From Candidatus Nanoarchaeia archaeon (GTDB taxonomy: Archaea > Nanobdellota > Nanobdellia > Woesearchaeales > JANQNC01), in NCBI GenBank assembly GCA_028279745.1, contig JANQNC010000001.1:1230001-1262000 (forward strand): DNA of 32,000 nucleotides, read 5' to 3'. The notes below the pieces were generated by a model. The model did no database searches, was not told where the DNA came from, and saw nothing but the letters and a program-made list of their open reading frames with translations. Position numbers and translations under genes: made by a program. The stretch's first letter is position 1, and the number at the start of each line of letters is the position of its first letter. Below, in pieces: positions 8,288-21,742 of this stretch.

Positions 8288-8326
8288 TTTAACCTCCTTT
8301 TTTTTTTAATGGGTAATGGGTGCAAG

Positions 8327-8334
8327 TATATAAA
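8327..8334 (-). promoter_or_regulatory. TATA box for the 8287->6019 operon
   Basis: Minus-strand TTTATATA, 39 nt upstream of the ATG at 8287. The leader contains an A10 run and GGAGGT. Confidence 0.55.
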
Positions 8335-8380
8335 TCTTTGCATTATTTACCCCTATTAAGTGACAACAAACAGCTTAGAA

Positions 8381-8421
8381 TGGTCAAATTTAATGGTTTG
8401 AGGTGGTCGAATTTGGGGTTT
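8381..8421. repeat. two imperfect ~19-bp direct repeats upstream of the 8287 operon promoter
   Basis: tggtcaaatttaatggttt (8381-8399) and tggtcgaatttggggttt (8404-8421), starts 23 bp apart. On the minus strand they lie about 50-90 nt upstream of the TATA box at 8327-8334. Confidence 0.5.
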
Positions 8422-9010
8422 ACGGGGTGTCTAGACGCCCTTTGATGAGTTTCATAGAACTGTCCCACATGTGTTGGGTGTATGGGCAACAGAAGGGTCT
8501 GTTGGTTAATTTCTCATCTTTTGACCAAAAGTCGTAAAAGAATTTAGGATTCATGCCCATGGAATCTGCTGCAGCTTTGAATGTGTCAATGCTTGTGCTA
8601 ACCCAAAGAAAATCTAGGTCATTGAAGACTGCCATCTCCTTACATTCTTTGAAAGGTGTATTGTCTCCTAGTAACCAGTTGTCATGTACTGCAATATAAT
8701 TGACTATCTGTTTAGATTTTTCTTTGTCATAGTTAACTTTTTTTAAGATATCTTTAGCAATGTATGAACCTTCCCGCATATGAAACACTTTTATGTCTTT
8801 ACCTTTGATGTGAGGATTCTTTTCTTTAACTTTGGAGTAACCAACATCGTGAAGAATAACTATGGGCAAAAGAAGTTTTTTATCAAGAGATTCTATATCT
8901 GCGATTTTGTTGGATTCTTTTTGCATCCACTCAATATGGGGGATGTCAAATATTCTTCCTTTTTCATAATATGGCTTTGCCAGCTCCCATATCTTGTCGT
9001 AGGTTGTCAT
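8420..9010 (-). CDS. HD-domain metal-dependent phosphohydrolase
   Basis: PHIEW...LLLPIVILHDVGY...IAVHDNW gives the H...HD...H(D) pattern of the HD superfamily. Confidence 0.8.
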   Translation of the reverse strand: MTTYDKIWELAKPYYEKGRIFDIPHIEWMQKESNKIADIESLDKKLLLPIVILHDVGYSKVKEKNPHIKGKDIKVFHMREGSYIAKDILKKVNYDKEKSKQIVNYIAVHDNWLLGDNTPFKECKEMAVFNDLDFLWVSTSIDTFKAAADSMGMNPKFFYDFWSKDEKLTNRPFCCPYTQHMWDSSMKLIKGRLDTP

Positions 9011-9557
9011 TTTCAGTTTTTTTTATTATTATGCTTAGGTTATCATATGTTTCGGAGTGAAGGTGTTTAACCATCCCTTTAAATTCTGGTGAGTCAATAG
9101 TTCTAAGGTATAACTTAGCTCGTTCATAATCTCTTCTTAGTCTTGATTCTATAGGACCAAAGTCTTTCTCGAACTGACTTGAATAATGATGATAAGGTGT
9201 GTCCTCGTCATTAAAAGCAGAACCTCTCTTTCCAGGACTCCATAGGTCAATCTTGTGAACATTTGGGTAGTTGAATATCGTGTCATATGCAGCTTTTCTT
9301 AAGAAAGATTCAACAAGGTTGTCTAGTTCAAACTTTGCGCCAATGAAAAGATACACATCTTCATCTTTAGGAAACACAACAATGTCTCCTTGTGGAAGAG
9401 TGCCGCCTTCCCTGAAGCTTAAACCATTTCCTTTATCAAACTCTCTGTACTGTGGTTCTCTGATAACGATATCATAACCTAAAGAAGGTTTGGTTATGAA
9501 ACTATTGAAATCCTTAATTGCTTCTAAAAATTGTTCATCTGTTATGAAGTCTGTCAT
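8964..9557 (-). CDS. hypothetical protein (197 aa)
   Basis: Long ORF in the operon. Its 3' end overlaps the HD gene start by 47 nt in another frame. No family recognised. Confidence 0.55.
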   Translation of the reverse strand: MTDFITDEQFLEAIKDFNSFITKPSLGYDIVIREPQYREFDKGNGLSFREGGTLPQGDIVVFPKDEDVYLFIGAKFELDNLVESFLRKAAYDTIFNYPNVHKIDLWSPGKRGSAFNDEDTPYHHYSSQFEKDFGPIESRLRRDYERAKLYLRTIDSPEFKGMVKHLHSETYDNLSIIIKKTENDNLRQDMGAGKAIL

Positions 9558-9561
9558 TTTT

Positions 9562-10002
9562 TTAAATCTTCCTTATGCTTTCTGCAAAGTCAAGCAGTAC
9601 TTTTTCATAAGTCTTGTCTGGATCGTATCTGTTGTTGAATGTAAGGTATCCTTCTGCATCGCTGTTGATAATTATTGTTAAGTCAATCGCATACTCAGGC
9701 ACATTCTTTTTTAGAATTTCTTCAATCTGTTCAGGTAAATTTGATTCGCCCATGCTGTTGTGTTCATTTCTTCCATTAGGTATTAGATGTTGAGAAAGAT
9801 CTGTCGCTTCGTGGATTGTAACTCCTAAGTCTGTAGGGATATTAGATTGTTTGGACTTGTCATAAAAATCAATAGAAGCATAGATCAATGCACTTGAAGA
9901 AACATCTTTAGATCTGCCATCATCAGAAAATATTTTAGTAACTGGAAAGACTTCTGATCTTATGATTCTTCTATCGAATTGGTTGACTAGTTCGTGTTTC
10001 AT
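9562..10002 (-). CDS. hypothetical protein (146 aa from ATG)
   Basis: The start is trimmed to the ATG at 10002, 1 nt after the TAA of the upstream gene. The longer track start would overlap that gene by 38 nt. Confidence 0.55.
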   Translation of the reverse strand: MKHELVNQFDRRIIRSEVFPVTKIFSDDGRSKDVSSSALIYASIDFYDKSKQSNIPTDLGVTIHEATDLSQHLIPNGRNEHNSMGESNLPEQIEEILKKNVPEYAIDLTIIINSDAEGYLTFNNRYDPDKTYEKVLLDFAESIRKI

Positions 10003-10003
10003 T

Positions 10004-10456
10004 TTAATGCGATGCGTGATAAAACAACTGGATCTGTTCAACTATTCCTGAGTTGGGTTGTACAGAAATATTTTTTATTGTAAGTTCTAGTGGTTCTTCT
10101 TTGGTGCTTGTCAGATCTTTACATTCATAAAGATGTAATGCAAGGCTTGCATTAAATGATTTTGTGTTGAAGGGTAATCTTTTATTGAGATATTTTGCAA
10201 ACTTAAACTGAGGGGCTTCAGGGTTAAGTGTTTCTTTTTCAAATAAGGCTCTTAAGCTTTCATCTTTAAGTTTTGAAGCATTAACTTTACCGCTTTTTGC
10301 AATCTGATCATAGAAGTCATGAACATTGCCTGTTAAAGGTAGAACGGGTGGTTCAGTTATTAACAGATTATGGTTGTGGGGATATACAGAATAAGTGGCA
10401 AGCTTATACTTTTGATTTTCGATACTGAATTTCAGACTGTGTAATATTGTAGCCAT
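10004..10456 (-). CDS. hypothetical protein (150 aa), first gene of a leaderless operon
   Basis: The ATG lies 25 nt downstream of a TATA box (10482-10489) with no SD. No family recognised. Confidence 0.55.
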   Translation of the reverse strand: MATILHSLKFSIENQKYKLATYSVYPHNHNLLITEPPVLPLTGNVHDFYDQIAKSGKVNASKLKDESLRALFEKETLNPEAPQFKFAKYLNKRLPFNTKSFNASLALHLYECKDLTSTKEEPLELTIKNISVQPNSGIVEQIQLFYHASH

Positions 10457-10481
10457 TGTAGTAAGAGTTATTGGAGAAGAG

Positions 10482-10489
10482 TATATAAA
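10482..10489 (-). promoter_or_regulatory. TATA box for the 10456->8420 operon
   Basis: Minus-strand TTTATATA, 25 nt upstream of the ATG at 10456. Confidence 0.55.
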
Positions 10490-10521
10490 TGTTTCTGTGG
10501 TTTTACTACTTCGGAGTGGGT

Positions 10522-11043
10522 TTAATTCAAACTATATTTTACAGGAACTACTTTTCCTTTGTGTTCTCCAAATGTTGCTTTTAGTGGAACGCCTCTTAAT
10601 TCGCTAAGCAAATAAGGTATGAAAACACCTGCTAGTTTTTCAGCAGTATGTACCATGTATTCAGAGTTCTTAATATTTTCAGGATTTTCAGTCCACCAAA
10701 TTCCACAACCGCCTTCAATCTTTCTTAACTCTGTTTCTAACTTATTAAGAAGATATTTTGCATGATTGATGCTTTGACTGTTTTTTATCTGGTTATGATA
10801 ATCTCGTTTTAGATGTCTTTTGATATCTTTTTCTATGCTAATATCACATCTTGCTTGTTCATAATCTGCTCCATTGTATAATGGAAGGATTACTTTTGAA
10901 TCGCTTCTAAATACGTCTGGTGCCATTAAGGATCTGTTATCAAGATATTGTATAAATTCATTATTAGAGTTTACTCTTGGTATAGATATTGCAGGCACGG
11001 GTTTAATTCCTTTTTCTTTTAGTTGTTGTAGTATTACTGACAT
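10522..11043 (-). CDS. hypothetical protein (173 aa)
   Basis: SD GAGGAA upstream. The start follows the preceding gene by 3 nt. No family recognised. Confidence 0.55.
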   Translation of the reverse strand: MSVILQQLKEKGIKPVPAISIPRVNSNNEFIQYLDNRSLMAPDVFRSDSKVILPLYNGADYEQARCDISIEKDIKRHLKRDYHNQIKNSQSINHAKYLLNKLETELRKIEGGCGIWWTENPENIKNSEYMVHTAEKLAGVFIPYLLSELRGVPLKATFGEHKGKVVPVKYSLN

Positions 11044-11046
11044 TTT

Positions 11047-11769
11047 TTAGTTCCTCATAATTATCATCGTTTTGAAAGGATCTTCACCAAATGATGCCAA
11101 TGGGTTGTAACCCATACTTTGAATTGATTCTCCATCCACATCAGATGCAATAATTGTCTCAAAATGATCGCTTTTTACTAAAGCTTCTATGTTCTTGAAT
11201 GAGTTGTCAGTTATTGCAACAGTTATAGGTGTTTTCATGATCTTTTCATAGGTAGAGATATTGTCTAAAACTTCTTTCACATCTCCTTCCTGCATGTAGA
11301 TCTGTTTTTCCATTCCATTTATCTCTCTGTTTTGTTTCATGCCGTAACTTATATTTTCATCTACTGCTAAAACTTTAGCTCCAAGATGAGCTGCAGCGAT
11401 AGAATGCTCTCCCAATCTACAATCCGCATCAAGAACCGCTTTTCCTTTCAAGTCTAAATTTTGTAATGCAAGAATACCATATGACGCGTCAGGATCATTA
11501 AAGAACTTCACTGCTTCTTCTCCATACAAAGGGTCGCCTAACCCATAAAAATGAATAAAGTCTATTTGTCCATTTTTGATTTCCGCTGGGAGGTCGCTTC
11601 TTCTTTCGATAGGTCTTACGGGGTATTCTTCAAGACATGCATTAGCAGCATAACCTGGAACATCTTCCCTTGCAGGTATGAATAGTTGTGATCCTACAAG
11701 AAGATGATCAAAACTGTGGTTTTCTAAAAGTTTTAGTAATTCTTCTCTAATTTTGATAGTTGATTCCAT
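11047..11769 (-). CDS. PrmA-like Rossmann methyltransferase fold with degenerate glycine loop
   Basis: KAVLDADCRLGEHSIAAAHLGAKVLAVDEN aligns, from memory, with the PrmA-type motif VLDVGCGSGILSIAAAKLGAK.V.A.D.D. Two of the three loop glycines are replaced (D and R). SD GGAGGA. TATA box at 11808-11815. Confidence 0.55.
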   Translation of the reverse strand: MESTIKIREELLKLLENHSFDHLLVGSQLFIPAREDVPGYAANACLEEYPVRPIERRSDLPAEIKNGQIDFIHFYGLGDPLYGEEAVKFFNDPDASYGILALQNLDLKGKAVLDADCRLGEHSIAAAHLGAKVLAVDENISYGMKQNREINGMEKQIYMQEGDVKEVLDNISTYEKIMKTPITVAITDNSFKNIEALVKSDHFETIIASDVDGESIQSMGYNPLASFGEDPFKTMIIMRN

Positions 11770-11807
11770 TTTATTCCTCCTCTATTTTTGATAGAATTGC
11801 CATTTTA

Positions 11808-11815
11808 TATATAAA
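11808..11815 (-). promoter_or_regulatory. TATA box for the 11769->10522 operon
   Basis: Minus-strand TTTATATA, 38 nt upstream of the ATG at 11769. The leader carries GGAGGA. Confidence 0.5.
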
Positions 11816-11825
11816 TCTGATGAAA

Positions 11826-12101
11826 TCATTTAAAACCTATTCTTTTTAAAAAATAATCTTCAGATGATAAAGCTTCAAGTTTAAGTTTTTGAGTCTTAGC
11901 TAATTTTTTTACTTCTTTAGCTATGTTGGTTTTCTTCTGGTTTTTGCTTATTTCAAAAGATGCAATCTTATCAGTAAGCTTATCAAACTTGTAACTGTCA
12001 TCCACTTCTTTTATTTGAGCCAGGTAAGGTTTGATAACTTTAGACCTAACTTGATTATGTTTGTATTGCTCGGTGCAGTATAGGATCTTTAGAGTTGTCA
12101 T
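11826..12101 (-). CDS. small cytoplasmic protein (91 aa), paralog of 17615-17908 (C-terminal SEDYFLK motif)
   Basis: ATGA overlap with the upstream gene. Shares I.ILY....H, KPYL, FEISK and KLKLEALSSEDYFLKRI with the 97-aa protein at 17615-17908. Confidence 0.6.
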   Translation of the reverse strand: MTTLKILYCTEQYKHNQVRSKVIKPYLAQIKEVDDSYKFDKLTDKIASFEISKNQKKTNIAKEVKKLAKTQKLKLEALSSEDYFLKRIGFK

Positions 12102-13519
12102 TTTTTCCTCTTGTATCTGTCTTCATCAGTTACTTTTTTCTTTTTACTCTCAATCATTCTTCCGTAGAGAGTCAAACCTATGTAAGGTTCATAGTTTTTA
12201 TTCTCATCAATCTTAACTCCTGCTTTAAGGATTCCTGTGCGTTTGCTAGCTGTTATGTTTGGGATGTATTCAATTACTTTTCCTCTTGACATAACTACAT
12301 CAAGACCTGCTCCGATATGCTGATTTCTGAATATGGATGTGTGAGGAAATATTTCTGCACCAACTAAAGCATCATCTCCCTTTTTGAAAGCATGAATAGA
12401 ATAAGCTTGGTTTCCTGAAGTGTATCTTAACATTGCACCAGGCAATACAAAGTTTCTTATCGCAAAAAACAATCTTAGATCATCATTAAGCTTGAAACCA
12501 TTAGTTGCAGTAAAAGCTGCTTTGAACTCTTTATTATCAGAACCTAGTTTTAACCTTAAGCCACTATACTTAAGTGCTAGGTGAGTGAAGTTTCTATCAT
12601 AGTATTCTCCAAATCCTGTTTCGTATCCTAATCCGAGAGGGATTTTTACAAAAGGTATTCTTAATTTTTTAGTATTAGGGTATACTGCTCCTCCCATAAT
12701 GAAACCTGTTTTATCCGGAATGATGTTGACATCCAGAGAAAGCTTTTCCCATGATATATCAAATAGATAACAAGCCATATCATCTTGAGATCCAAATAAA
12801 AGATTTATTGAAGTATTGTTTTTCTTCTTCTTTGGAGGTTTTGCGAACTTTGCAGATTTTGGTTTATCGTTACGATGGGTAAAAATAAGAAGTTCATAAG
12901 AAAGCATTACGTGGTTGAATTTAGAGTATGTGAGCCAGTCAACATTAAGTTTTCGATCTATAATTCCAAACGAATATCCAATCTTAAATCGGTGTTCAAG
13001 TCTAACTGTCGGCTTATTAAATTCATCATGTTTTTTTGAACGATCTGTTTCAGCCACTAAATATACAGAAAGAAGTTTAGCGTCTTCTTTATTGTTTTTT
13101 TTGATTGTTTTTGATTCTAATTTGTCTCCTGTGTTTAGATCAAAACTTTCTATTTTTTGAGAGTGAGTTAGATCAATATGGCTTATAACGCCTTCAATCC
13201 CAAACCCTTTTTTTGAAAATTTGTTATTCTTTCCGCTGATAAAAGGGAACCAATCAACATTTAAACCTACCATGTAGTCTTTTCCATCTATTCCATAAGA
13301 GACTTTGCTGATCAAGTCAGAACCTGCTTTTGCACCTATGCCTATCTTACCCATGTCAAGATTAAGAGATGAGGTTATAGGCATAAAATTAGCTTTTGTT
13401 TCACCATTGTGGTAAACACCTACACCTAAACCAAAATCCTTCTTTTGCTCTTTTGCAAAAAGACTGCCAACAAGAAGTCCTAAACTTATTGCAGCAGCTT
13501 TGATTAAACTCATTTTCAT
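12098..13519 (-). CDS. secreted all-beta protein (473 aa) with outer-membrane beta-barrel-like sequence texture
   Basis: Signal peptide MKMSLIKAAAISLGLLVGSLFA. There are many 8-12-residue strands of alternating polarity with Gly/Asn/Asp turns and aromatic residues: FGLGVGVYHNGE, KIGIGAKAGSD, YMVGLNVDWFPF, HLALKYSGLRLKLGSD, FKAAFTATNGFKL, LRLFFAIRNF, AYSIHAFKKGD, HIGAGLDVVMS, YIGLTLYGRM. A Lys-rich linker sits mid-protein. The start is set at the ATG at 13519, which forms an ATGA overlap with the upstream stop. Confidence 0.6.
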   Translation of the reverse strand: MKMSLIKAAAISLGLLVGSLFAKEQKKDFGLGVGVYHNGETKANFMPITSSLNLDMGKIGIGAKAGSDLISKVSYGIDGKDYMVGLNVDWFPFISGKNNKFSKKGFGIEGVISHIDLTHSQKIESFDLNTGDKLESKTIKKNNKEDAKLLSVYLVAETDRSKKHDEFNKPTVRLEHRFKIGYSFGIIDRKLNVDWLTYSKFNHVMLSYELLIFTHRNDKPKSAKFAKPPKKKKNNTSINLLFGSQDDMACYLFDISWEKLSLDVNIIPDKTGFIMGGAVYPNTKKLRIPFVKIPLGLGYETGFGEYYDRNFTHLALKYSGLRLKLGSDNKEFKAAFTATNGFKLNDDLRLFFAIRNFVLPGAMLRYTSGNQAYSIHAFKKGDDALVGAEIFPHTSIFRNQHIGAGLDVVMSRGKVIEYIPNITASKRTGILKAGVKIDENKNYEPYIGLTLYGRMIESKKKKVTDEDRYKRKK

Positions 13520-13836
13520 AACCAATCTTTGACTTGCATATACTGCTTAAGAATTTCCAACACTTGATCTCTTCTGTAAAGCTCAGGTGTTCTGAAACGA
13601 TCAGAGGTGTTTGGAGGTATAGTGTTAATCTCAATCATGTATTGGTTTTTTACTATCCTGTAATCTAACGATAGAGTGGGAGCATTGTCTTTAGCTTTTC
13701 TCTCAAATCTAGCGTGTTTTTTGTGTTGTTGGTATAGTGGTTTATCTGTTTTGTTCTCAAAACCTAATTCTTTCAGTCCTAAGTGTAGAAGATTTCTATC
13801 TTCCAACCTTTTTGCTTTTTGTATTATTTTTTTCAT
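13516..13836 (-). CDS. small protein (106 aa) whose C-terminal half resembles the C-terminal Mg-ATP strand region of ATP-grasp enzymes
   Basis: LSLDYRIVKNQYMIEINTIPPNTSDRFRTPEL compared, from memory, with Ddl/RimK-type RIDV....G.FYLLE.NT.PGMT..S..P. The protein is far too short for a complete ATP-grasp fold. SD-like AGGGGA upstream. Confidence 0.4.
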   Translation of the reverse strand: MKKIIQKAKRLEDRNLLHLGLKELGFENKTDKPLYQQHKKHARFERKAKDNAPTLSLDYRIVKNQYMIEINTIPPNTSDRFRTPELYRRDQVLEILKQYMQVKDWL

Positions 13837-13851
13837 TTTTTAGTGTCCCCT

Positions 13852-14481
13852 TTAGTTTAGTAGAGAGTCCAGGTTTTGTGTTCTATCCGTAAGGTTTGCT
13901 TTATATGCTAATTTTAACAGTCCTGGTGCTTTTTTTCTAATGTCTTGTTTTATTGCTGCGTATTTGTTTTCTGCAAACTCCCAGACATTTCTAGATTCTT
14001 CGCTTTCCCTTCTGTTGCGGTAAATAAAATTGTTTAACCGTACGCAATCTACGGTGTTTCTCCAGACTTCGCATTTAATTTTTGTTCCTTCTTTAGTTTC
14101 TATGTTCATATCCATCCATCTATGGTGGTTTAAGTATACTATGTCTCCTGAAATTCTTTTGAAATCAAAATTGTCTCTTTCAACAGCTAAAGTATATTTT
14201 GTTCCGTCATCTAACTCTCCTGAGATCTGTAGGTCTATTTCATATTCCCCTTTTGCATTTGCTCGATCTTTTCTCTCAACAACCTTTATGTCAAGTTCAT
14301 TAGTGTTGTTGGCAAATTGTTCAATTTCTGTTATGTATTCATTTACTGGAATGTTTTTAGTTGTGATGGGTAAACTAAATGCAAGCTCTTCTAAAAATGG
14401 TTTGGGATTACAGTTTTTAACTCCGAATGATGCAGCTGCTGCTAACCAAACTGCAATTAGTAGGGATTTTTTTGCATTCAT
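13852..14481 (-). CDS. secreted protein, conserved-signal-peptide family member 3 (209 aa)
   Basis: The start is trimmed to MNAKKSLLIAVWLAAAASFGVKNC (ATG at 14481, 2 nt after the upstream stop, SD GAGG). Shares EYI....F...EL.IK with the neighbouring paralog. Confidence 0.7.
   Translation of the reverse strand: MNAKKSLLIAVWLAAAASFGVKNCNPKPFLEELAFSLPITTKNIPVNEYITEIEQFANNTNELDIKVVERKDRANAKGEYEIDLQISGELDDGTKYTLAVERDNFDFKRISGDIVYLNHHRWMDMNIETKEGTKIKCEVWRNTVDCVRLNNFIYRNRRESEESRNVWEFAENKYAAIKQDIRKKAPGLLKLAYKANLTDRTQNLDSLLN
14416..14481 (-). repeat. conserved signal-peptide cassette, copy 3
   Basis: tttaactccgaatgatgcagctgctgctaaccaaactgcaattagtagggattttttt... The ~50-nt core differs from the copies at 15088-15155 and 15644-15709 at only a few positions, whereas the rest of the genes is diverged. 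Confidence 0.85.
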
Positions 14482-14483
14482 TT

Positions 14484-15155
14484 TTAGTGCCTCTGTATTC
14501 CTGTGATATTTGCGAAAACCATCTTTTCTATGTCGGGATATTGTACCCCTAACCATTTCCTAAATCTGCTCAGTTCTCTACCTCCAATATCTATAATTTC
14601 TTTATGTTCTTCAGTTTTGTAGTCTATTGGGAGTTTGTATTCAATGTTGTTTATCACTGCATCTGTGACTGCGTAATCAGAGCGGTGCTGAAGGTAAGAA
14701 TAGCTTGTGTTACGAGATAAGACGTCTAAACAAAGCGTATGACTTTTGTGGTATAAAGAGTAATCTAGTAGAAGATTGTACTCAGTTTTCAGTAGATTGA
14801 TATTGTTAATTCTCACTTTAGACCTCCCAAAGGTGCCAGGTTTGTATTCTGTTTTAATATTTAGTTCTGGATATTGTGCTTTGAAACTATCAAAAGCAGA
14901 AATGTATTCAAGCAATCTAACATTTTTGTAATCCAGCTTTTTTAAGTTTACTTTAGGAAGTTTAGGTTTTTTCTTTGCTTTAGGAACTTCTTTAACTTTC
15001 TTTTCAAGCTTCTCTCTTCTTTCTAACTCTTCACTGAACGCTTCATGAAGAATCTTTTTTGTTTCATCAATGGGGGGTGCACATTGTTTAACTCCGAATG
15101 ATGCAGCTGCTGCTAGCCAGACTGCGATTAGTAGTGATTTTTTTGCTATGCTCAT
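14484..15155 (-). CDS. secreted protein, conserved-signal-peptide family member 2 (223 aa)
   Basis: MSIAKKSLLIAVWLAAAASFGVKQC. ATGA overlap with the upstream gene. GGAGG upstream. Confidence 0.7.
   Translation of the reverse strand: MSIAKKSLLIAVWLAAAASFGVKQCAPPIDETKKILHEAFSEELERREKLEKKVKEVPKAKKKPKLPKVNLKKLDYKNVRLLEYISAFDSFKAQYPELNIKTEYKPGTFGRSKVRINNINLLKTEYNLLLDYSLYHKSHTLCLDVLSRNTSYSYLQHRSDYAVTDAVINNIEYKLPIDYKTEEHKEIIDIGGRELSRFRKWLGVQYPDIEKMVFANITGIQRH
15088..15155 (-). repeat. conserved signal-peptide cassette, copy 2
   Basis: tttaactccgaatgatgcagctgctgctagccagactgcgattagtagtgattttttt... Confidence 0.85.
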
Positions 15156-15709
15156 TTTTTCAGGGCCTCCGCTTTTTTAACGTATGTATGTATCGAGTCT
15201 GCCTGTTTTCCTGCTACCCGTATCATAACTAATTTTGCATAGTTGTTTTCTTCTTTTGAGACTTGTTCTGTTAGGTACTCTGCCAGATTTATGTGCCACA
15301 TTGCGATATTGAGATAGTGGTTTATTTGTTGCTCTTTTGTAAAGTAGTCCTGTTTTATTTCAGGTCTAGTTTTTATGAATTTTTTTTCTGTCTTAATCGC
15401 TTCTCTTTCTATAAGCTCTTCTAAGTTCTTTTCGATAGCTTCATCTGTCTCTAACCTATGCAGTTTTTCAACAGCATTCAAAAAATTTTGTTGTATCTTA
15501 GGCAAATAATCATCTTTCTGAGTGTTATAATTTTTCTTTTGAGCTTTTTTTTTCTTTACTGCAAAAACTTTTTTTACTTTTTTCTCAAGTTCTTGTTCAA
15601 CTTCAGGAAGAGGTTTTAGAGTACTTGGATCTGTTTTACAATATTTAATCCCAAATGATGCAGCTGCAGCTAGCCAAACTGCGATTAGTAGGGATTTTTT
15701 GAAGTTCAT
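15152..15709 (-). CDS. secreted protein, conserved-signal-peptide family member 1 (185 aa, Lys/Glu-rich helical mature part)
   Basis: MNFKKSLLIAVWLAAAASFGIKYC. The mature part is predicted helical and charged. Confidence 0.7.
   Translation of the reverse strand: MNFKKSLLIAVWLAAAASFGIKYCKTDPSTLKPLPEVEQELEKKVKKVFAVKKKKAQKKNYNTQKDDYLPKIQQNFLNAVEKLHRLETDEAIEKNLEELIEREAIKTEKKFIKTRPEIKQDYFTKEQQINHYLNIAMWHINLAEYLTEQVSKEENNYAKLVMIRVAGKQADSIHTYVKKAEALKK
15644..15709 (-). repeat. conserved signal-peptide cassette, copy 1
   Basis: tttaatcccaaatgatgcagctgcagctagccaaactgcgattagtagggatttttt... Confidence 0.85.
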
Positions 15710-15717
15710 TTTTTTCG

Positions 15718-16125
15718 TTAAAGTCTCTTTTGATACAAAACTTCTATCTCGCTTGCATACTTATATCCGACTCTTACATCTGGCTCTGCAAATGAAACTG
15801 CCCGTTCACTAAGTGGATATTTAGGGTATTTAGACATACTTATCCTGGTGTCCTTATCAATAAGAAGATCCAGGGTTTCTTTGGTTGTTGCCCCGTCATC
15901 AAGTATATTCAAAGCTAAAATTCGGCCACAATCTGTTTTAACTTTTATTATATATTTTGAGTCTTTGGTATACTTTTCCTCAATTACTTTTCCTTGAATG
16001 CTGTTTTTTGTTTTGTATCCAGGAGTAGACATCTTATGAGTTAGTTTAGCAGTTAAGCCTGCAAGCACTATAGCAGTTGCAATTATGCATCTGTTAAGAT
16101 ATTTGTCAAACCTTTTTTTATTCAT
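15718..16125 (-). CDS. N-terminally anchored small beta-rich protein (135 aa)
   Basis: Signal anchor CIIATAIVLAGLTAKL after a basic N-terminus. SD GGAGA upstream. Confidence 0.6.
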   Translation of the reverse strand: MNKKRFDKYLNRCIIATAIVLAGLTAKLTHKMSTPGYKTKNSIQGKVIEEKYTKDSKYIIKVKTDCGRILALNILDDGATTKETLDLLIDKDTRISMSKYPKYPLSERAVSFAEPDVRVGYKYASEIEVLYQKRL

Positions 16126-16161
16126 TTTTATCTCCTATTGTGTTTTTCATTTTAGTTAACC

Positions 16162-16455
16162 TCATGAATATTTTTCTGCTAGTTCTTCTAAGTTAGTGCT
16201 TAGTTTGTTCATTGCAGTCATTACTGGTTCACCGAAAGATTCTCCGCCATAACTTTTGATTTCTTTAGCCATCCTTTTGTAAAAAACATCTTTTAAGAGA
16301 CCTGCTTGTGGTGCTTTTCTTTTCAGATAGTTCATTATCTTTTGGGGTGCTTGTTTAATTCTGTCATTTGATGTTGTATCTTCATTTACCCAAATCATTG
16401 TGTTTCTTATGTATTCAGAACTTTGTTCGCAGATGCTTTTTAGGTTATTTTTCAT
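16162..16455 (-). CDS. hypothetical cytoplasmic helical protein (97 aa from ATG)
   Basis: The track start (16473) is TTG. The ATG at 16455 lies 4 nt after the upstream stop, with GGTGAGAG upstream. Confidence 0.5.
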   Translation of the reverse strand: MKNNLKSICEQSSEYIRNTMIWVNEDTTSNDRIKQAPQKIMNYLKRKAPQAGLLKDVFYKRMAKEIKSYGGESFGEPVMTAMNKLSTNLEELAEKYS

Positions 16456-16459
16456 TGTC

Positions 16460-16828
16460 TTATCTCTCACCAAAGTCTTGTAATTTTCTGTTTAATCTGT
16501 ATAATTTTACACCTTTCTTGTGATCTTCAACTTCTTCCCACTTGTATTCTCCCCAGTTAAAACTAACTAATCCATCCATGTCTTTCATCGCTTCGTCTCT
16601 ATTTTGGTATGCTGCATTTGCTACTAGAACTTCAGCGATCTGCTCTTTTGTGTATAGAGGTGTGTTTCTAGAACCGAACATTAGTTTGATCTCTGATAAT
16701 GCACTTGTTAACATGCTTTGTTTGCCTATTAACATTTTTTCTAGCTGTCTAAGTGTAGCACATTCTTTGTTCTGTGCAGGAACTAGTGTGTTTGTTGTGC
16801 TTAGTATTGCTTTCATGTAGTTTTCCAT
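16460..16828 (-). CDS. hypothetical cytoplasmic protein (122 aa from ATG)
   Basis: The ATG at 16828 (MENYMKAIL) is preceded by AAGGAGGA at optimal spacing. The longer track start lacks an SD. Confidence 0.55.
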   Translation of the reverse strand: MENYMKAILSTTNTLVPAQNKECATLRQLEKMLIGKQSMLTSALSEIKLMFGSRNTPLYTKEQIAEVLVANAAYQNRDEAMKDMDGLVSFNWGEYKWEEVEDHKKGVKLYRLNRKLQDFGER

Positions 16829-16841
16829 TTTATTTTCCTCC

Positions 16842-17231
16842 TTAATTAAATTCAAAAGGGGTTGTAGATAGTACTGATTCTAGGTTGTATATTTTTACTG
16901 TTTCTGATTTGTTTCCTTCTCTATCTACTGCATATACCTCAAAAGTATAAGGCATGTTGTCTCTTACTTCTCTTGGAACTACAAAAGAAGCGCTGTGTTT
17001 TAGTTTGCATCTGTTTACTAGTTTTACTTTTTTGTCTTCACAAACTGCATAAGCAGTCATTCCAACTGCGTTGTTGTCCTTAAAATCTATGTATTTACCG
17101 GATGCATCCTCTAAGACAGGTATTTTTTTATGCTGCTCTGATTCTACTTTTGTTTTTTCAGTTGTTGAACATCCAGTAAACCCAAAATATAATGTTGCGA
17201 TTGTTGCTATAGTTGCTAGTACTTTTTTCAT
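16842..17231 (-). CDS. lipobox-type putative lipoprotein (129 aa), tandem paralog B
   Basis: MKKVLATIATIATLYFGFTGC (lipobox-like FTGC). GGAGGA SD. The first 44 coding nt plus the SD are identical to the upstream paralog. Confidence 0.7.
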   Translation of the reverse strand: MKKVLATIATIATLYFGFTGCSTTEKTKVESEQHKKIPVLEDASGKYIDFKDNNAVGMTAYAVCEDKKVKLVNRCKLKHSASFVVPREVRDNMPYTFEVYAVDREGNKSETVKIYNLESVLSTTPFEFN

Positions 17232-17245
17232 TTTTTATTCCTCCT
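17188..17245 (-). repeat. 58-bp perfect direct repeat, copy 1 (SD, ATG and signal-peptide codons of lipoprotein B)
   Basis: tataatgttgcgattgttgctatagttgctagtacttttttcattttttattcctcct is identical to 17575-17632. Confidence 0.95.
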
Positions 17246-17618
17246 TAAACTTTTGATAACTGTCTACAAATTCTCCAGAAATCTGAGTTAGTTTCCCCCT
17301 TATGTCTATGTCAACCTCACTCTTGAATATGGGTTTTTTGGTTATTACTCTGACACTATCTCCTAATTTGAACGGATCTGCTTTTCCGGAACAGACGTAA
17401 ACGTTACCTTCTTTTGTTCTAATTTCGTATGCGTTGATTTCGCTCATTATGCTTCCATTACCTGTGCCCCATAATGATGCGTTTTTATTGTGTATGCTGT
17501 ATTTGTTAGTGACTCTTCCAACAAGGGGATTTTCAGAATGTGTTGCTTTGTTTTCAGAACATCCTAATCCGAAGTATAATGTTGCGATTGTTGCTATAGT
17601 TGCTAGTACTTTTTTCAT
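17235..17618 (-). CDS. lipobox-type putative lipoprotein (127 aa), tandem paralog A
   Basis: MKKVLATIATIATLYFGLGC (lipobox-like GLGC). GGAGGA SD. ATGA overlap with the upstream gene. Confidence 0.7.
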   Translation of the reverse strand: MKKVLATIATIATLYFGLGCSENKATHSENPLVGRVTNKYSIHNKNASLWGTGNGSIMSEINAYEIRTKEGNVYVCSGKADPFKLGDSVRVITKKPIFKSEVDIDIRGKLTQISGEFVDSYQKFKEE

Positions 17619-17632
17619 TTTTTATTCCTCCT
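17575..17632 (-). repeat. 58-bp perfect direct repeat, copy 2 (SD, ATG and signal-peptide codons of lipoprotein A)
   Basis: Identical to 17188-17245. The copies are 387 bp apart. Confidence 0.95.
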
Positions 17633-17908
17633 CAAGCTTTTCAAGAAATAATCTTCACTTGTTAGTTTTTCAAGAGTGATTCCTTTTTTTTCAGCAAAAG
17701 ATTTGATTCTTATTTGGTTTTTATAGGGGGTTACATAGCTTTCAATCTTGAATACTGAAACTTTTTCAGTTACACTTTCATGGCGAACTGCTTTTCTAAG
17801 GTTTGCAGATTCACCTAGAACAGTCATTAAATAAGGTTCAACAAGCTTGTCCAGTATTGGGTTAAAGTCATGTTTTTTGCTGTCGTAAAATATGGCAATT
17901 CCTACCAT
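17615..17908 (-). CDS. small cytoplasmic protein (97 aa), SEDYFLK family, first gene of operon A
   Basis: ATG at 17908 preceded by a G7 SD-like tract. Paralog of 11826-12101 (EPYL, FKIES, ITLEKLTSEDYFLKSL). Confidence 0.6.
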   Translation of the reverse strand: MVGIAIFYDSKKHDFNPILDKLVEPYLMTVLGESANLRKAVRHESVTEKVSVFKIESYVTPYKNQIRIKSFAEKKGITLEKLTSEDYFLKSLRRNKK

Positions 17909-17921
17909 TTTTCCCCCCCAG

Positions 17922-17942
17922 TAGTCACTTGTTTAGTTACTA
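17922..17942 (-). promoter_or_regulatory. 21-nt palindromic element in the 5' leader of operon A
   Basis: tagtcac-ttgttta-gttacta: 7-nt arms with one mismatch and a 7-nt spacer. It lies 14 nt upstream of the ATG at 17908. Same element as at 21613-21633. Confidence 0.5.
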
Positions 17943-17963
17943 GGTAGAAGTAATTAGATGTAG

Positions 17964-18005
17964 TATTTATATGATTTCCATATAAATTATAGTGAACATT
18001 ATAAA
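17964..18005 (-). promoter_or_regulatory. conserved promoter/operator module, copy A (heads operon A, 17908->11826)
   Basis: The plus strand reads tatttatatgatttccatataaattatagtgaacattataaa. On the minus strand this is TTTATAATGTTCACTATAATTTATATGGAAATCATATAAATA. 39/42 identical to copy B. Confidence 0.75.
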
Positions 18006-18050
18006 AAATGCCCGAAGTAGAAGGGTGCAATGGTGATTTGCTTCTTCGGG
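18001..18050 (-). terminator. hairpin plus T-run terminator-like structure after operon B
   Basis: cccgaag(ta)gaag ... cttcttcggg forms 11 bp with a 2-nt bulge at 18011-18050. On the minus strand it is followed by CATTTTTTAT. It lies 27 nt after the stop of 18077-18796. Confidence 0.55.
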
Positions 18051-18076
18051 TCTTTATTCTTCCTTTAAAATATCAT

Positions 18077-18796
18077 CTAGAACTCTGCTATCGAATTCTC
18101 TTCCTTTGGATTTCTGTATACTAAATAAGAACAGACTTCTTTGATGGATCTGTGGTTTGTATCTACTAAACCACTTTTGACACTGTTTCCGAATATAGAA
18201 GCACCGTTTGCTTTAAAATATGGATAAAGAAGGATGCCTCCTTTTTCTAGCTCAGGTAAGGCTAAGTTATCTATTCCATCAATAAAGAAGTAGGGCTTGC
18301 CTTCGAGACTTGTCACTCTTTTAAAATAATGGTCCATGATTTCTTTTACATTATTCATAGTTTCCGTAAATCTTTTTGTTCTTTTACAACCTAAAACATT
18401 TTTTATGAGGCTGTCTTTTTTAACTTCATCGTAATCTGTTTCTTCTCCTCCTCTAATGAGTCCCATTGTTTTGTTGTCGGAAACTCTGATAAGATTGCTA
18501 TTTTCAGTAGTATATTCATCTGAACCAACAAGATAAGGCTTTAGAAATTCAGGTAGTTCGACAAAATCTCTAAATATCTCCCTTCCCTGTTCGGTTTCTA
18601 TATTTTTGGTTACTGCGTATAAAAGATCAGTTAGTTCGCTGTAGGTAGGGAGTCTTAATATGTCGTCCTCGTGTTTTTTAAGGTCTTCCATCTTTTCTCC
18701 TATGACTCTCTTTGGAGAGAAGTATATGTTTCCTTCAAGACCTTCTACTTTTAGTGCAGGTCTTTGAACTTTTACTTCAATGGTTGTTTCTCTCAT
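18077..18796 (-). CDS. hypothetical protein (239 aa), last gene of operon B
   Basis: SD GAGGT upstream. Followed by a hairpin plus T-run at 18001-18050. No family recognised. Confidence 0.6.
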   Translation of the reverse strand: MRETTIEVKVQRPALKVEGLEGNIYFSPKRVIGEKMEDLKKHEDDILRLPTYSELTDLLYAVTKNIETEQGREIFRDFVELPEFLKPYLVGSDEYTTENSNLIRVSDNKTMGLIRGGEETDYDEVKKDSLIKNVLGCKRTKRFTETMNNVKEIMDHYFKRVTSLEGKPYFFIDGIDNLALPELEKGGILLYPYFKANGASIFGNSVKSGLVDTNHRSIKEVCSYLVYRNPKEENSIAEF

Positions 18797-18799
18797 TTT

Positions 18800-19342
18800 T
18801 TACCTCAAAAAAGTTTCATAAAGGTGTGTTACTAACTTATCATCATCTTTAATCAATTCATTTATTTGTTCTAGTGTTGAATCGATCTTAGGGTCTCCCA
18901 TTGTGTTATCCATTATATCAAAATCTTTTGGGCAAGAGTCTATGTCAAAATCTAGATAGTGTTTACGATTATGGTCAGATATGCTTATGAAATACACTCT
19001 TTCTGATAAATTATCGACTTTATCGCCGTATAACATTTTAGTTAAACCCTTGTAAGTGATGTCTTCTTTAAAGTCTAATGCTAGTCTGTATCCTTCCCTT
19101 TTGTTAACAAATACGGAAATTGCAGATACTGTCATTAAATAAGGTTGAAGTGAGAGTGTTATCCCTTCTCTTTTAGTGCCATCTGTGTCTTTTGAAGTTA
19201 ATTTACTCTGTATGATGTTTTTAGAATCTCCTACTAAATTCTCCATTTTTGATAAATAGTTATCTCCGACTAATCTGGTTAAGTCTGAAGTGGTGTTTAG
19301 TACAAAATTGCTTTTTTCATGTGGGGTTAGTTCTATGTTCAT
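18800..19342 (-). CDS. hypothetical protein (180 aa)
   Basis: ATGA overlap with the upstream gene, and SD GAGGGT within it. No family recognised. Confidence 0.55.
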   Translation of the reverse strand: MNIELTPHEKSNFVLNTTSDLTRLVGDNYLSKMENLVGDSKNIIQSKLTSKDTDGTKREGITLSLQPYLMTVSAISVFVNKREGYRLALDFKEDITYKGLTKMLYGDKVDNLSERVYFISISDHNRKHYLDFDIDSCPKDFDIMDNTMGDPKIDSTLEQINELIKDDDKLVTHLYETFLR

Positions 19343-20091
19343 TTTCTAACCCTCTTTGGATTAAACAAATCTAATGATTTTTTTTCTGTTTCAAGTCTTT
19401 TTTCTTCTCTTCGCTTGTCTGCGTTTGCCAAAAATTTTTCTAGTCTTTTCTTATCCGATTTTGCTTTTGCTGCTTCTTTTTTAAGTTCTTTGTACATTTT
19501 GTTTAAAGCACTAATTAACTTTAATTCAAGTTTTTCTTCAAAATTTACAGAGTGTGGCTTGTTTCCTGAATGGTAAGTTATCTTATTTTTAAAATCTTTA
19601 AACCTATCGTTGGTGTTGAAGTCAATTCCTAATGGGAAAGAGTCAACTAATGAAACTAACCTGTTTTCTTCTCTAGCCATATATTGAAAGTTTTCTTTAC
19701 TTAAATCCTTGTTGTGGAGTATTTTAAACTGGGTTTTATCTGTTTTTTTGCTTCCTTTGTTTCTTGTTTCTTGGAATACGTAAACGAAATCTGTGCTGTC
19801 TTCATAAAAAACTTTTTCATGTGTTATGAATTTGCCATCTGGAGAGATGTAAAGTCTGCTGTACATTGGCATAAGATGATCAAATTCTTTTGAATTTGTT
19901 AATTTATAGGCTAGTTGTTCTATTTTTGTTCTATTTGAATTTTTTTGTAAGTATTTTCTTATAGGTAAAGGTTTAGCATTCACTTTTGTGGCTAAAGCAA
20001 AATAGGTAATCACTGCTGCGGTTGTTGCTATCTTTCCTGCGTTGTCATAAATTTTCTTTCCGATGTTGTATAGTTTTTGTTTTATTGTCAT
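19339..20091 (-). CDS. N-terminally anchored protein (250 aa) with C-terminal Lys/Glu-rich coiled-coil-like tail
   Basis: The track start is GTG. The ATG at 20091 (MTIKQKL) has GAGGAG 5 nt upstream. Anchor KIATTAAVITYFALATKV. Confidence 0.6.
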   Translation of the reverse strand: MTIKQKLYNIGKKIYDNAGKIATTAAVITYFALATKVNAKPLPIRKYLQKNSNRTKIEQLAYKLTNSKEFDHLMPMYSRLYISPDGKFITHEKVFYEDSTDFVYVFQETRNKGSKKTDKTQFKILHNKDLSKENFQYMAREENRLVSLVDSFPLGIDFNTNDRFKDFKNKITYHSGNKPHSVNFEEKLELKLISALNKMYKELKKEAAKAKSDKKRLEKFLANADKRREEKRLETEKKSLDLFNPKRVRK

Positions 20092-20099
20092 TTCTCTCC

Positions 20100-20447
20100 T
20101 CACATCATTGATTCTACTTCTGTTTCTGATAGTTCCATTGCGGGATCTGCGATGTCATGATTATCAAACTCGTCTAGTCTTTCGATTCTTGCTTCAAGTT
20201 TAGCATAAAAGTCTGTTAAGTCATTTCCTGTCATCTTGACAAGATCTATCTTCCTTTCTGAGCTGTGTTCACATCTGTAAAGTGTTTCTTGATCAAATGT
20301 GTTTATGAAATATGTTTTGCCTTCGAACTTTTCGTCATGGAATGCTCCATTGAAACGGTTGTCTAAAATCTCTCTGATGCTGTCATTATTCCATCCTTCA
20401 CTAGGGTTTTGTATGGTCAGATTGTATCCGTTTTCGATTATTTTCAT
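20100..20447 (-). CDS. acidic hypothetical protein (115 aa)
   Basis: SD GGAGAA upstream. No signal peptide. No family recognised. Confidence 0.55.
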   Translation of the reverse strand: MKIIENGYNLTIQNPSEGWNNDSIREILDNRFNGAFHDEKFEGKTYFINTFDQETLYRCEHSSERKIDLVKMTGNDLTDFYAKLEARIERLDEFDNHDIADPAMELSETEVESMM

Positions 20448-20450
20448 TTT

Positions 20451-20627
20451 CTAGTTCTCCATATCGTCATGGTACCATTTGCCGAATCTTGCTTGGGTTA
20501 TCGCTCCCGGGATTCTGTCTAATTCTTCTAGGCTAAGCTTTCTATTGCTCTTGTAAGCTACGCCTCTGTTTATCTCTGATTTCATGAATTGTTTAAGGTC
20601 TAGTTTGTTTTCTTTTGTTTCTTCCAT
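20451..20627 (-). CDS. small ORF (58 aa) missing from the track
   Basis: Hand translation gives MEETKENKLDLKQFMKSEINRGVAYKSNRKLSLEELDRIPGAITQARFGKWYHDDMEN. It fills the otherwise unexplained 236-nt gap inside operon B, and its stop lies 3 nt before the next ATG. Confidence 0.45.
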   Translation of the reverse strand: MEETKENKLDLKQFMKSEINRGVAYKSNRKLSLEELDRIPGAITQARFGKWYHDDMEN

Positions 20628-20683
20628 TTTCTCATTGACTTCTTTGTTTTCTTATTGTGATTCGTTTTTTGGTTCTGTTATTT

Positions 20684-21586
20684 TCATTTCCTCACAGTCA
20701 GTCTTTTGTATTCTGCTTTTTGGCCGTTGTTAACTCCGATTATGTAAGTTCCAGCTCCAACAGGTAGACCGTTCTTGTTTGTTCCATCCCAAACTTTCTG
20801 TCCTTTCAGATCTCTAATCATCTTTCCATGGATGTCGAATACTTTAGCATCGATCCCGTTGTGATTAATGTTGATTTGAGAACCTGATTTTGCAGGGTTT
20901 GGACTAACATTCATACCTTTGTAAATTCTTCTTGGAATGTTTTCAATATTTGCTGGAGGCAGAACCGTTACTACCGTAGATTCGGTTGTGTTTTTGCCTT
21001 CATTATCTGTTATTGTTAATTTGGTTAAATAGGTTCCAGGTTCTGAGTATCTGAATGTTACGGTGTGGTCACCTGCCATTCCGGCGTCTATCTCTCCATC
21101 ATTATCGTGGTCCCATCTGTAGACTATGCTAGGATCAGATCCTGTTATGCTGAATTCTACATCTAAAGGTGCTTGACCTGTAGTCTCTGTTGATCCTACT
21201 ATTCCAGGCGTTCCTGCCTCTCCTTCTGCTTTTTGTGCTGCGATTACAACTGTTTCGCTTGTTTGTTTTCCTTCATTATCTGTAACTGTAACTGTAGCTA
21301 TGTATGCTCCTGGTTCTTCATATCTGTTTGATATTGTGTGGGGGCCGTTTGCGGTTGCATCCACGTTTCCATCTCCGTCAAAGTCCCATTCGTACTTTAC
21401 TATGTTGCCATCAACGTCAAGGCCTGTTGCGGTAAATAAGGTATTTAGCGGCGCAACGCCTGATTGGTTTATTGCGTTAACTGTAACGTATGGTGCTATA
21501 TTATCTGTAGAACTTGCTCTTGCTGCAGGTGTTAAACCTAACACTGCTGACAAAACAAGTGCTGTTAATGTTTTTGCTTTTTTCAT
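20684..21586 (-). CDS. secreted protein with two PKD domains and a T9SS-type/FlgD-Ig-like C-terminal domain
   Basis: Signal peptide MKKAKTLTALVLSAVLGLTPAARA. Two PKD-like repeats: GVAPLNTLFTATG...YEWDFDGDG...Y.EPGAYIATVTVTDNEG, and GQAPLDVEFSITG...YRWDHDNDG...YSEPGTYLTKLTITDNEG. The C-terminus VSPNPAKSGSQINI...AKVFDIHGKMIRDL...WDGTNKNGLPVGAGTYIIGV resembles the Por/T9SS sorting and FlgD-Ig domains. G+C is visibly higher than in the neighbours. Confidence 0.8.
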   Translation of the reverse strand: MKKAKTLTALVLSAVLGLTPAARASSTDNIAPYVTVNAINQSGVAPLNTLFTATGLDVDGNIVKYEWDFDGDGNVDATANGPHTISNRYEEPGAYIATVTVTDNEGKQTSETVVIAAQKAEGEAGTPGIVGSTETTGQAPLDVEFSITGSDPSIVYRWDHDNDGEIDAGMAGDHTVTFRYSEPGTYLTKLTITDNEGKNTTESTVVTVLPPANIENIPRRIYKGMNVSPNPAKSGSQININHNGIDAKVFDIHGKMIRDLKGQKVWDGTNKNGLPVGAGTYIIGVNNGQKAEYKRLTVRK

Positions 21587-21612
21587 TTTTTGTTTACCTC
21601 TTAGTTATCATC

Positions 21613-21633
21613 TAGTCACCTCTTTTGTGACTA
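21613..21633 (-). promoter_or_regulatory. 21-nt palindromic element in the 5' leader of operon B
   Basis: tagtcac-ctctttt-gtgacta: perfect 7-nt arms and a 7-nt spacer. It lies 27 nt upstream of the ATG at 21586. Confidence 0.55.
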
Positions 21634-21657
21634 CTGAGTGGTGAATATACTATCTAC

Positions 21658-21699: not shown

Positions 21700-21710
21700 T
21701 TTTCGAAAGG

Positions 21711-21718
21711 TTTATAAA
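21711..21718 (+). promoter_or_regulatory. TATA box for the AbrB-PhoU gene
   Basis: TTTATAAA, 24 nt upstream of the ATG at 21743. Confidence 0.55.
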
Positions 21719-21742
21719 GGAAAGCCCACTACCCCCTTATAT

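Follow-up and report, generated by a model that had tools for sequence, protein, structure and literature searches.

A cysteine-terminated N-terminal cassette, conserved as peptide on five small proteins with dissimilar bodies, as a putative export signal in an archaeal-looking genome

The stretch analysed here, hereafter the window, comprises 32,000 nucleotides (nt) of the 1.30-Mb contig JANQNC010000001.1 (assembly GCA_028279745.1, filed as Candidatus Nanoarchaeia archaeon; positions 1,230,001 to 1,262,000 of the forward strand), and coordinates below are those of the window unless another source is named. Our subject is a nearly identical N-terminal cassette of 21 residues, ending in cysteine (Cys), which is common to five small genes whose protein bodies are otherwise very different. 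Three of these lie in tandem on the minus strand: A (13852-14481, 209 residues), B (14484-15155, 223 residues) and C (15152-15709, 185 residues), with the stop codon of C overlapping the start of B (ATGA). The fourth, D (27292-27918, plus strand, 208 residues), is dispersed, has its own promoter and is apparently leaderless. A Logan contig from a second assembly of the same run (SRR20820740_124809) is 100% identical to the window over 17217-9852, which includes the A/B/C array, and over 1870-1; an assembly artefact is thereby ruled out, and the independent Logan gene calls agree on the lengths of A to D. The fifth gene, G (P0006, 227 residues), lies on the same Logan contig, at 10001-10684 of its fetched part L003 and some 8.1-8.8 kb to the left of window position 1. 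As L003 and window positions 1-1870 overlap with 100% identity, G belongs to the same genome and is a paralog. An earlier note on this DNA had counted four members; A to D stand, and G adds at least one more.

In each of the five genes conservation begins precisely at KK and stops at the Cys. The N-termini of A, B and C read M-x(2-3)-KKSLLIAVWLAAAASFG[VI]K[NQY]C, that of D reads MNKKSILLAVWLTAVATFGIRNC, and G begins MIKKSILIAVWLAAAASFGVKHC. The cassettes proper, from KKS to Cys, occupy 14410-14472 in A (KKSLLIAVWLAAAASFGVKNC), 15081-15143 in B (KKSLLIAVWLAAAASFGVKQC) and 15638-15700 in C (KKSLLIAVWLAAAASFGIKYC), all on the minus strand, and 27298-27360 on the plus strand in D (KKSILLAVWLTAVATFGIRNC). 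Over A to D the consensus is KKS-[LI]-L-[IL]-AVWL-x-A-x-A-x-FG-[VI]-[KR]-x-C, which divides into a short n-region (M-x(1-3)-KK-S), an Ala-rich hydrophobic region of 16 residues and the ending FG-[VI]-[KR]-x-Cys. The small residue Ser of KKS is invariant and is written with three different codons; A10, A15, A17 and G20 are likewise invariant and give the hydrophobic segment a face rich in Ala, Ser and Gly.

At the nucleotide level, the 50-nt core consensus found three matches at three or fewer mismatches and none in 100 shuffles. A MAFFT nucleotide alignment gave identities of 25-29 of 30 positions among the cassettes of A, B and C, and of roughly 35-50% elsewhere, the 60 nt upstream of the ATG included. 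In protein comparisons (BLASTP), no pair tested was similar beyond the Cys. The alignment profile and the point at which BLASTP stops thus bear out what the earlier note had proposed, namely a shared signal-peptide-like cassette followed by diverged mature parts. The note had also pointed to a short block, EYI...F...EL.IK, shared by A and B; this block exists but is marginal (local alignment z = 2.6, equalled in 9 of 300 shuffles).

Beyond the Cys, three of the five proteins are built alike for a short distance. An alignment of the first 100 residues places a linker, LE(K/E)(K/Q)VK(K/E)VP..KKK, after the Cys of B, C and G and none in A, followed in all five proteins by a short helix motif, [EN][YF][FIL]xx[FLI][ED]x[FL]. 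In B the linker is rich in Lys, Glu and Pro (~14925-15080) and leads to a globular part with no detectable homolog; in C it is rich in Lys and Glu (~15512-15637) and the C-terminal part is rich in Glu, Lys and Leu; in G, which overlaps its upstream gene by 8 nt, it is rich in Lys, Pro and Glu and precedes a globular domain of the A type. Gene A passes through a short spacer, with no long linker of this kind, to its own globular domain. The composition of the linker in B, C and G suggests a tether. Proteins C and G contain no Cys other than that of the cassette, which makes an intramolecular disulfide impossible there.

The globular domain of A and G (~150 residues; window 13852-14340, L004 6001-6558 and L008 2414-3007) ends in the motif YA..Y.AI..DIN.K.PGL..L.YKS. 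An exhaustive HMMER search with A returned four relatives: G, at E = 3e-15 to the mature domain of A, and P0007, P0008 and P0009, which are homologs lacking a signal from other metagenomes. Between A and G the globular identity is 27% over 132 confidently aligned residues by our own count and 31-33% by phmmer and MAFFT. The contigs of P0007 and P0009 are archaeal in type, with a TATA box 23-26 nt before the ATG and no in-frame start upstream; since the TATA boxes fix the starts, these two proteins are truly without a signal. The domain therefore occurs elsewhere unaccompanied, and the cassette is a module placed on it. Neither A nor G has a Pfam or NCBIfam match and none is on record for the products of the homologs; we take the domain to be an undescribed family. 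No family emerged when A to D, G and the genes around them were searched against Pfam, PHROGs and NCBIfam, and hhalign comparisons of the A/G-domain profile with B, C and D were not significant; as judged from these comparisons, the passengers of the cassette are unrelated or undetectably related to each other.

AlphaFold2 modelled A poorly from a single sequence (predicted local distance difference test, pLDDT, 39.6) and better from five (pLDDT 75). The five-sequence model reaches pLDDT 82-96 over most of residues 41-200, with lower values in loops at ~71-80 and 101-120, and predicts a helix, an antiparallel sheet and a long C-terminal helix. Its N-terminal 40 residues are of low confidence and show only a short low-confidence helix at residues 5-17. 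Foldseek found no match to this model in PDB (best E = 0.42, template modelling score ≤0.27) or in BFVD (best E = 0.03).

Whether the cassette is constant through selection on the peptide or through homogenisation of the DNA may be read from its synonymous sites. We compared A with G by Nei-Gojobori counts of proportions (pN, pS) and rates (dN, dS) of nonsynonymous and synonymous change, with Fisher tests of cassette against globular domain. Synonymous divergence is the same in both parts (pS 0.57 and dS 1.06 in the cassette, pS 0.57 and dS 1.09 in the domain; P = 1.0 for pS), while nonsynonymous divergence is some 12-fold apart (dN 0.066 and 0.79, giving dN/dS of ~0.06 and 0.73; P = 6e-9 for pN). 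Cassette and gene body are therefore of equal age, and the peptide of the former is under purifying selection. Gene D leads to a similar picture: its cassette keeps 14 of 21 residues of A and is similar at 19 (67% identical, 90% similar), while the codons of residues shared with A, B or C are identical in 6-7 of 12-13 cases against 5.0-5.5 expected by chance. Over the 63-nt cassette D differs from A at 20 positions and G at 12, mostly synonymously. These counts strongly support purifying selection on the peptide, and not nucleotide homogenisation, as what keeps the cassette constant, in line with one of the options of the earlier note, strong selection on a signal-peptide feature. That the cassette serves as an export or anchoring signal maintained in this way seems to us very probable.

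Its general form is that of an N-terminal signal. In all five genes KK is followed by an apolar run of 16 residues, as the n- and h-regions of the lipobox class would have it. The run has a Hessa-scale sum of ~0 and a Kyte-Doolittle mean of 2.1, the same values as other predicted cleavable signals of the region, while true transmembrane helices of the same genome lie at ~-4 (to -4.6) and 3.1 (a rough comparison throughout). On this likeness a cleavable signal of the Sec type is more probable than either a permanent anchor or a pilin H-domain. The ending is less readily classified. As in a lipobox, V or I stands at -3 and an invariant Cys at +1 in all five genes. Position -2, uncharged in a lipobox, is K or R in all five, and position -1, where a lipobox has Gly, Ala or Ser, is N, Q, Y, N and H, the His being that of G. 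A lipobox pattern of the PROSITE PS51257 type accordingly fails every cassette gene, as the earlier note had recognised in calling the ending non-canonical, and passes only two other genes, E (16842-17231, minus strand, 129 residues; MKKVLATIATIATLYFG-FTGC), our internal comparator, and its partner F (17235-17618, minus strand, 127 residues; MKKVLATIATIATLYFG-LGC). The DNA of this pair is 100% identical between -16 (Shine-Dalgarno, GAGGAGGAATAAAAA) and +44, with divergence of the mature parts setting in past Cys-Ser. The phenomenon is the same as in the cassette genes, conservation ending just past the Cys; it is within this repeat that the two Logan contigs of the run break off (17217 and 17603). 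For the cassette, a distinct processing site, as the earlier note suggested, is conceivable. Two cleavage models remain: before the Cys, in the manner of a lipoprotein with a non-canonical site, or after the Gly, which would leave the Cys at +4.

We propose that A to D and G form a lineage-specific family of paralogs encoding putatively exported, N-terminally tethered cell-envelope proteins, in a small and AT-rich genome that appears archaeal. The cassette would be a family-specific, cleavable Sec-type signal peptide, and the Cys the first, or nearly the first, residue of the mature protein, attaching it to the membrane or envelope in a lipoprotein-like manner at a non-canonical site. A flexible linker rich in Lys, Glu and Pro would follow in B, C and G, and then a variable globular head. 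Four aspects of the data favour the Cys as the tether point. Firstly, conservation ends exactly there; secondly, it ends likewise in E and F, canonical lipoproteins of the same operon; thirdly, a tether-like linker follows; and fourthly, C and G have no second Cys. That a segment presumably cleaved off should be so strongly constrained further suggests sequence-specific recognition by a processing or targeting partner, and limited gene conversion among the three adjacent copies may add to the constancy. To the reading as a whole we assign a probability of roughly 0.5; its component that the Cys is a lipid or tether point, taken separately, we hold tentatively and at somewhat short of even odds.

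Several considerations weigh against this proposal. Position -1 is the least constrained of the cassette, the opposite of a classical lipobox; -2 and -1, both violated, are the two most discriminating lipobox positions; and the same genome does use canonical lipoboxes, in E and F. The sequence (S/T)-F-G is a textbook signal peptidase I site, so that the Cys could be mature residue +4 and not +1. Cleaved signal peptides normally evolve fast, and strong conservation fits a retained segment better. The signal-less homologs of the A/G domain raise the possibility that it is cytoplasmic, and the evidence base consists of five genes from one genome, studied by sequence only.

The best-surviving alternative follows from the second cleavage model. 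On this account the cassette is an ordinary Sec signal cut by signal peptidase I after (S/T)-F-G, the mature protein starts [VI]-[KR]-x-Cys, and the Cys serves, with no lipidation, for an intermolecular disulfide or some other attachment to a common envelope partner. All of the n-, h- and c-regions are present. By inspection, all five genes obey the (-3,-1) rule with (S/T)-F-G before [VI], -3 (S/T), -2 (F) and -1 (G) being invariant or conservatively substituted. The hydrophobicity equals that of neighbouring cleavable signals, and the failed lipobox positions are accounted for. It leaves unexplained, however, why conservation stops exactly at the Cys, as it does in lipoproteins E and F, and why dN/dS should be 0.06 across the whole hydrophobic region; moreover, a charged N-terminal linker of 40 residues would be of little use to a soluble secreted protein. 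We therefore regard it as unlikely, though a serious contender.

Less probable still is a bolder form of our own proposal, in which KKS-(hydrophobic)-FG-[VI]-[KR]-x-Cys would constitute an N-terminal sorting signal, so far undescribed, in an archaeon with a small genome, read sequence-specifically by a dedicated enzyme or receptor distinct from the lipobox pathway of E and F, with processing or anchoring at or next to the Cys; the signal would be modular and would have been placed on domains which other archaea keep in the cytoplasm.

The conserved segment may instead be retained, as an uncleaved signal-anchor whose transmembrane helix packs through small-xxx-small motifs on a partner or on other family members, with the Cys at the membrane interface. 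Very strong peptide-level conservation of the hydrophobic segment and its Ala/Ser/Gly-rich face would be well explained, and the order of its parts, an anchor, then a charged spacer and a head, is reminiscent of TonB- and TolA-like proteins. The segment has only 16 apolar residues, however, and a Hessa sum near zero, equal to that of cleavable signals and remote from the -4 to -4.6 of real transmembrane helices in the same genome, and the AlphaFold2 model offers no more than the short low-confidence helix at residues 5-17. We find an anchor improbable.

We give similarly little credence to nucleotide homogenisation through gene conversion or the shuffling of cassettes among paralogs, of the Mycoplasma or Borrelia kind, as the main cause of the conservation. 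What can be said for it comes from the A/B/C trio and from E and F. In the trio the codons of shared residues are identical in 13-15 of 18-19 cases, where ~7.5 are expected (P = 4e-4 to 5e-3). Cassette dS within the trio is 0.30-0.51 and the mature parts are unalignable, with no domain homology between A and B or A and C, whereas A and G, at dS ~1.06, have kept a detectable one; the trio's cassette thus looks younger than its gene bodies. Nucleotide differences in the cassette join A with B and C (6-8) and not with G (11-12), while the domain joins A with G, and the DNA of E and F is identical across the start codon. These patterns fit local gene conversion, or replacement of gene bodies beside a retained cassette, which they weakly suggest. 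Against homogenisation stand the comparison of A with G and all comparisons with D, in which synonymous sites are as diverged in the cassette as elsewhere. In addition, every difference within the 17-residue core of A, B and C is synonymous, and the upstream DNA is not conserved. Pfam searches of the window and its flanks gave no matches to a recombinase, invertible segments or silent cassettes, and there were no long inverted repeats. The trio statistics themselves derive from ~16 synonymous sites, with P = 0.014 on pooling pairs that are not independent and P = 0.15 on taking one pair alone, which weighs against homogenisation and also against the limited conversion admitted in our proposal. 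Gene conversion, the other option of the earlier note, is hence refuted for A-G and D and is plausible as a minor contributor within the trio. Repeat-mediated inversion between D and A/B/C was also considered and rejected, the cassettes being only 68-71% identical over 63 nt.

A class III signal, cut by a prepilin peptidase after KK-S so that the hydrophobic segment becomes a filament-core helix as in Haloferax PilA1-6, is very unlikely. The leader is suggestive, being 5-7 residues long and ending in KK-S with basic residues at -2 and -3 and an invariant small Ser, and tandem paralogs with conserved N-termini and divergent C-termini are typical of pilins (PMC6491452, PMC4187195). Under the class III criteria of PMC4187195, however, -1 should be Gly or Ala; it is Ser in all five genes, and a FlaFind-type pattern fails for every member. 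The hydrophobic stretch, 15-16 residues long before K/R, Cys and prolines end it, falls short of the ~20 or more expected of an H-domain, and the 47.8 kb of the contig examined yielded no match to a pilus ATPase, a platform protein or a prepilin peptidase. Finally, a messenger RNA (mRNA) or DNA element overlapping the 5' coding region, such as a translation-control structure or protein-binding site, which the earlier note had also entertained for the mRNA and to which the position of the block at the 5' end of each coding region and a weak predicted hairpin would lend themselves, is scarcely credible given an RNAalifold consensus of only -7.2 kcal/mol showing no covariation (term +0.28), a block that is in frame and bounded by codons, and the mostly synonymous differences by which D and G keep the peptide.

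Together with F and E, genes A, B and C lie within a long minus-strand operon (~17908 to 11826) whose genes are translationally coupled or closely spaced. Upstream of it, at 17958-18005 on the minus strand, is a probable promoter/operator, its function inferred, which is one of three copies (17958-18005, 21652-21699 and 25522-25569; 75-90% identical) of a 48-nt intergenic repeat containing a 9-bp palindrome, ATTTATATG-n5-CATATAAAT, over TATA-like boxes. Each copy lies between genes and adjoins the start of one on the minus strand (17908, 21586 and 25504), the middle one also overlapping a plus-strand open reading frame (ORF) start at 21686, and the repeat is probably a shared promoter/operator of co-regulated operons. 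The gene starting at 21586 (20684-21586, minus strand) encodes a secreted protein that combines two PKD domains with a C-terminal Por_Secre_tail, associated with type IX secretion sorting (TIGR04183, 36 bits, cutoff 23), in a genome that looks archaeal. At the end of the A/B/C operon, 12098-13519 (minus strand) encodes a Gly-rich protein of 473 residues with a signal peptide, short alternating hydrophobic stretches and no family match, which might be a barrel- or porin-like envelope protein. More broadly, 8000-25900 holds ~35 mostly small minus-strand genes with essentially no Pfam, PHROG or NCBIfam matches, many with N-terminal signals or anchors, and looks like a lineage-specific cell-envelope island.

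The promoter of D includes a TATA box, TTTATATA, at 27262-27269 on the plus strand, 22 nt upstream of the ATG; the box sets the start codon of D and falls within a longer ORF that begins at 27253. The same word occurs in 10 copies against 3.2 expected by chance, all intergenic (e.g. 261-268, 5570-5577, 27201-27208, 27262-27269 and 31870-31877). The distance to the following ATG is 22-25 nt where a Shine-Dalgarno sequence is lacking and 38-48 nt where there is one (GGAGG), a motif that internal genes of operons also use. A TATA box combined with leaderless mRNA is an architecture typical of archaea, and the arrangement indicates promoters of apparently archaeal type with many leaderless transcripts. 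The window has ~34% G+C, and its housekeeping genes are trpF, aroD and aroE, a double-AsnC regulator and a radical-SAM enzyme, most of its other ORFs being without a family; scans for Rfam families and transfer RNAs were empty, and the flanks gave TrmB-like and archaetidylinositol-phosphate-synthase-like matches, in weak support of an archaeal source. With TrpF as query the only match was an uninformative one, 43% identical, from Armatimonadota. An origin from a phage or mobile element was rejected, there being no PHROG matches and housekeeping genes flanking the region. Two further observations concern the left side of the region. At 293-3173 (plus strand) stands an unusual row of three genes: a fused double AsnC/Lrp regulator (314 residues), a radical-SAM/SPASM enzyme resembling NirJ, Ahb and mycofactocin maturases (well below all cut-offs) and a protein of the squalene/phytoene-synthase family. 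On L003, 1676-2356 has a weak match to transfer-RNA-dependent cyclodipeptide synthases (TIGR04539, 28 bits, cut-off 45).

The distribution of the cassette appears narrow. Word-indexed protein searches with B and D returned proteins of this genome only, and the exhaustive search with A found the cassette on G only. A four-sequence profile of the extended N-terminus had no match at E ≤10, back-translated cassette patterns occurred neither in GTDB representative genomes nor in JGI metagenomes, and a looser DNA pattern gave seven matches, all due to chance (stop codons or high-GC contigs). On these searches the cassette is apparently restricted to one genome, and the reach of our findings is limited accordingly, to five genes of one uncultured organism with no orthologs found in the genomes and metagenomes searched. 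Their interest is twofold. Protein anchoring in archaea is poorly understood, and the cassette is a testable candidate for a second Cys-linked route of processing or anchoring, based on a signal evolving ~12 times more slowly than its passenger, an invariant Cys that breaks the lipobox rules and the presence of canonical lipoproteins in the same operon. The locus also provides a worked example of how a "conserved cassette" can arise from peptide-level selection and not from gene conversion.

Signals that are better conserved than their passengers are known from several systems. In conotoxins and other secreted-peptide superfamilies conservation is, as here, much stronger in the signal than in the mature region, although these are eukaryotic and their biology is different. 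The YSIRK-G/S, KxYKxGKxW and SipW-cognate signals are family-specific classes implying dedicated handling, and resemble the cassette in placing a recognisable, conserved signal on unrelated or divergent passengers. They are bacterial, however, and carry their motif mainly in the n-region, and no NCBIfam model matches the cassette signal. Similar in gene arrangement are the variable surface lipoproteins of Mycoplasma (Vsp, Vlp, Vsa) and Borrelia (Erp, Mlp, Vsp), in which conservation is at the DNA level, includes the upstream region and is driven by recombination. They share with our family tandem and dispersed paralogs, a near-identical N-terminal signal and divergent mature parts. The cassette family differs in having no upstream conservation, no repeats in its mature parts, saturated synonymous sites in G and D under peptide-level selection, no recombinase found nearby and an archaeal-looking host, so that the earlier analogy with such variable families of host-associated bacteria, as an antigenic-variation system, is not supported. 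Identity at synonymous and upstream positions is absent from the cassette overall, partial in A/B/C and complete in E/F.

Among archaeal systems, PilA1-6 of Haloferax volcanii, with their fully conserved H-domain (PMC6491452), are likewise paralogs with a short basic leader, a conserved N-terminal hydrophobic segment and divergent C-termini; the cassette departs from them in its Ser at -1, its hydrophobic stretch of ~15 residues against ~30, the Cys and Pro directly after it and the lack of pilus machinery in the 47.8 kb. According to predictions, lipoproteins are widespread in DPANN archaea and Euryarchaeota, although understanding of their biogenesis is at an early stage; AliA and AliB, described in 2024-2025, are the first archaeal enzymes of lipoprotein biogenesis, although some archaea with predicted lipoproteins do not have them (PMC12462473). 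Lipoprotein signals (lipobox [LVI][ASTVI][GAS]C; handled by Lgt and Lsp in bacteria and by AliA and AliB in Haloferax) match the cassette in their short basic n-region, hydrophobic core and V/I at -3, in the invariant Cys at about residue 23-25 which ends conservation, and in the flexible tether beyond it, and canonical examples, E and F, share its operon. They differ where the cassette has K/R at -2 and its least constrained position at -1 and so fails the PROSITE-type rule, and lipidation of its Cys is putative. What sets the cassette apart from the known conserved-signal families is thus its apparent restriction to one genome, its conservation at the peptide level alongside saturated synonymous sites, and its non-lipobox Cys ending beside canonical lipoboxes.

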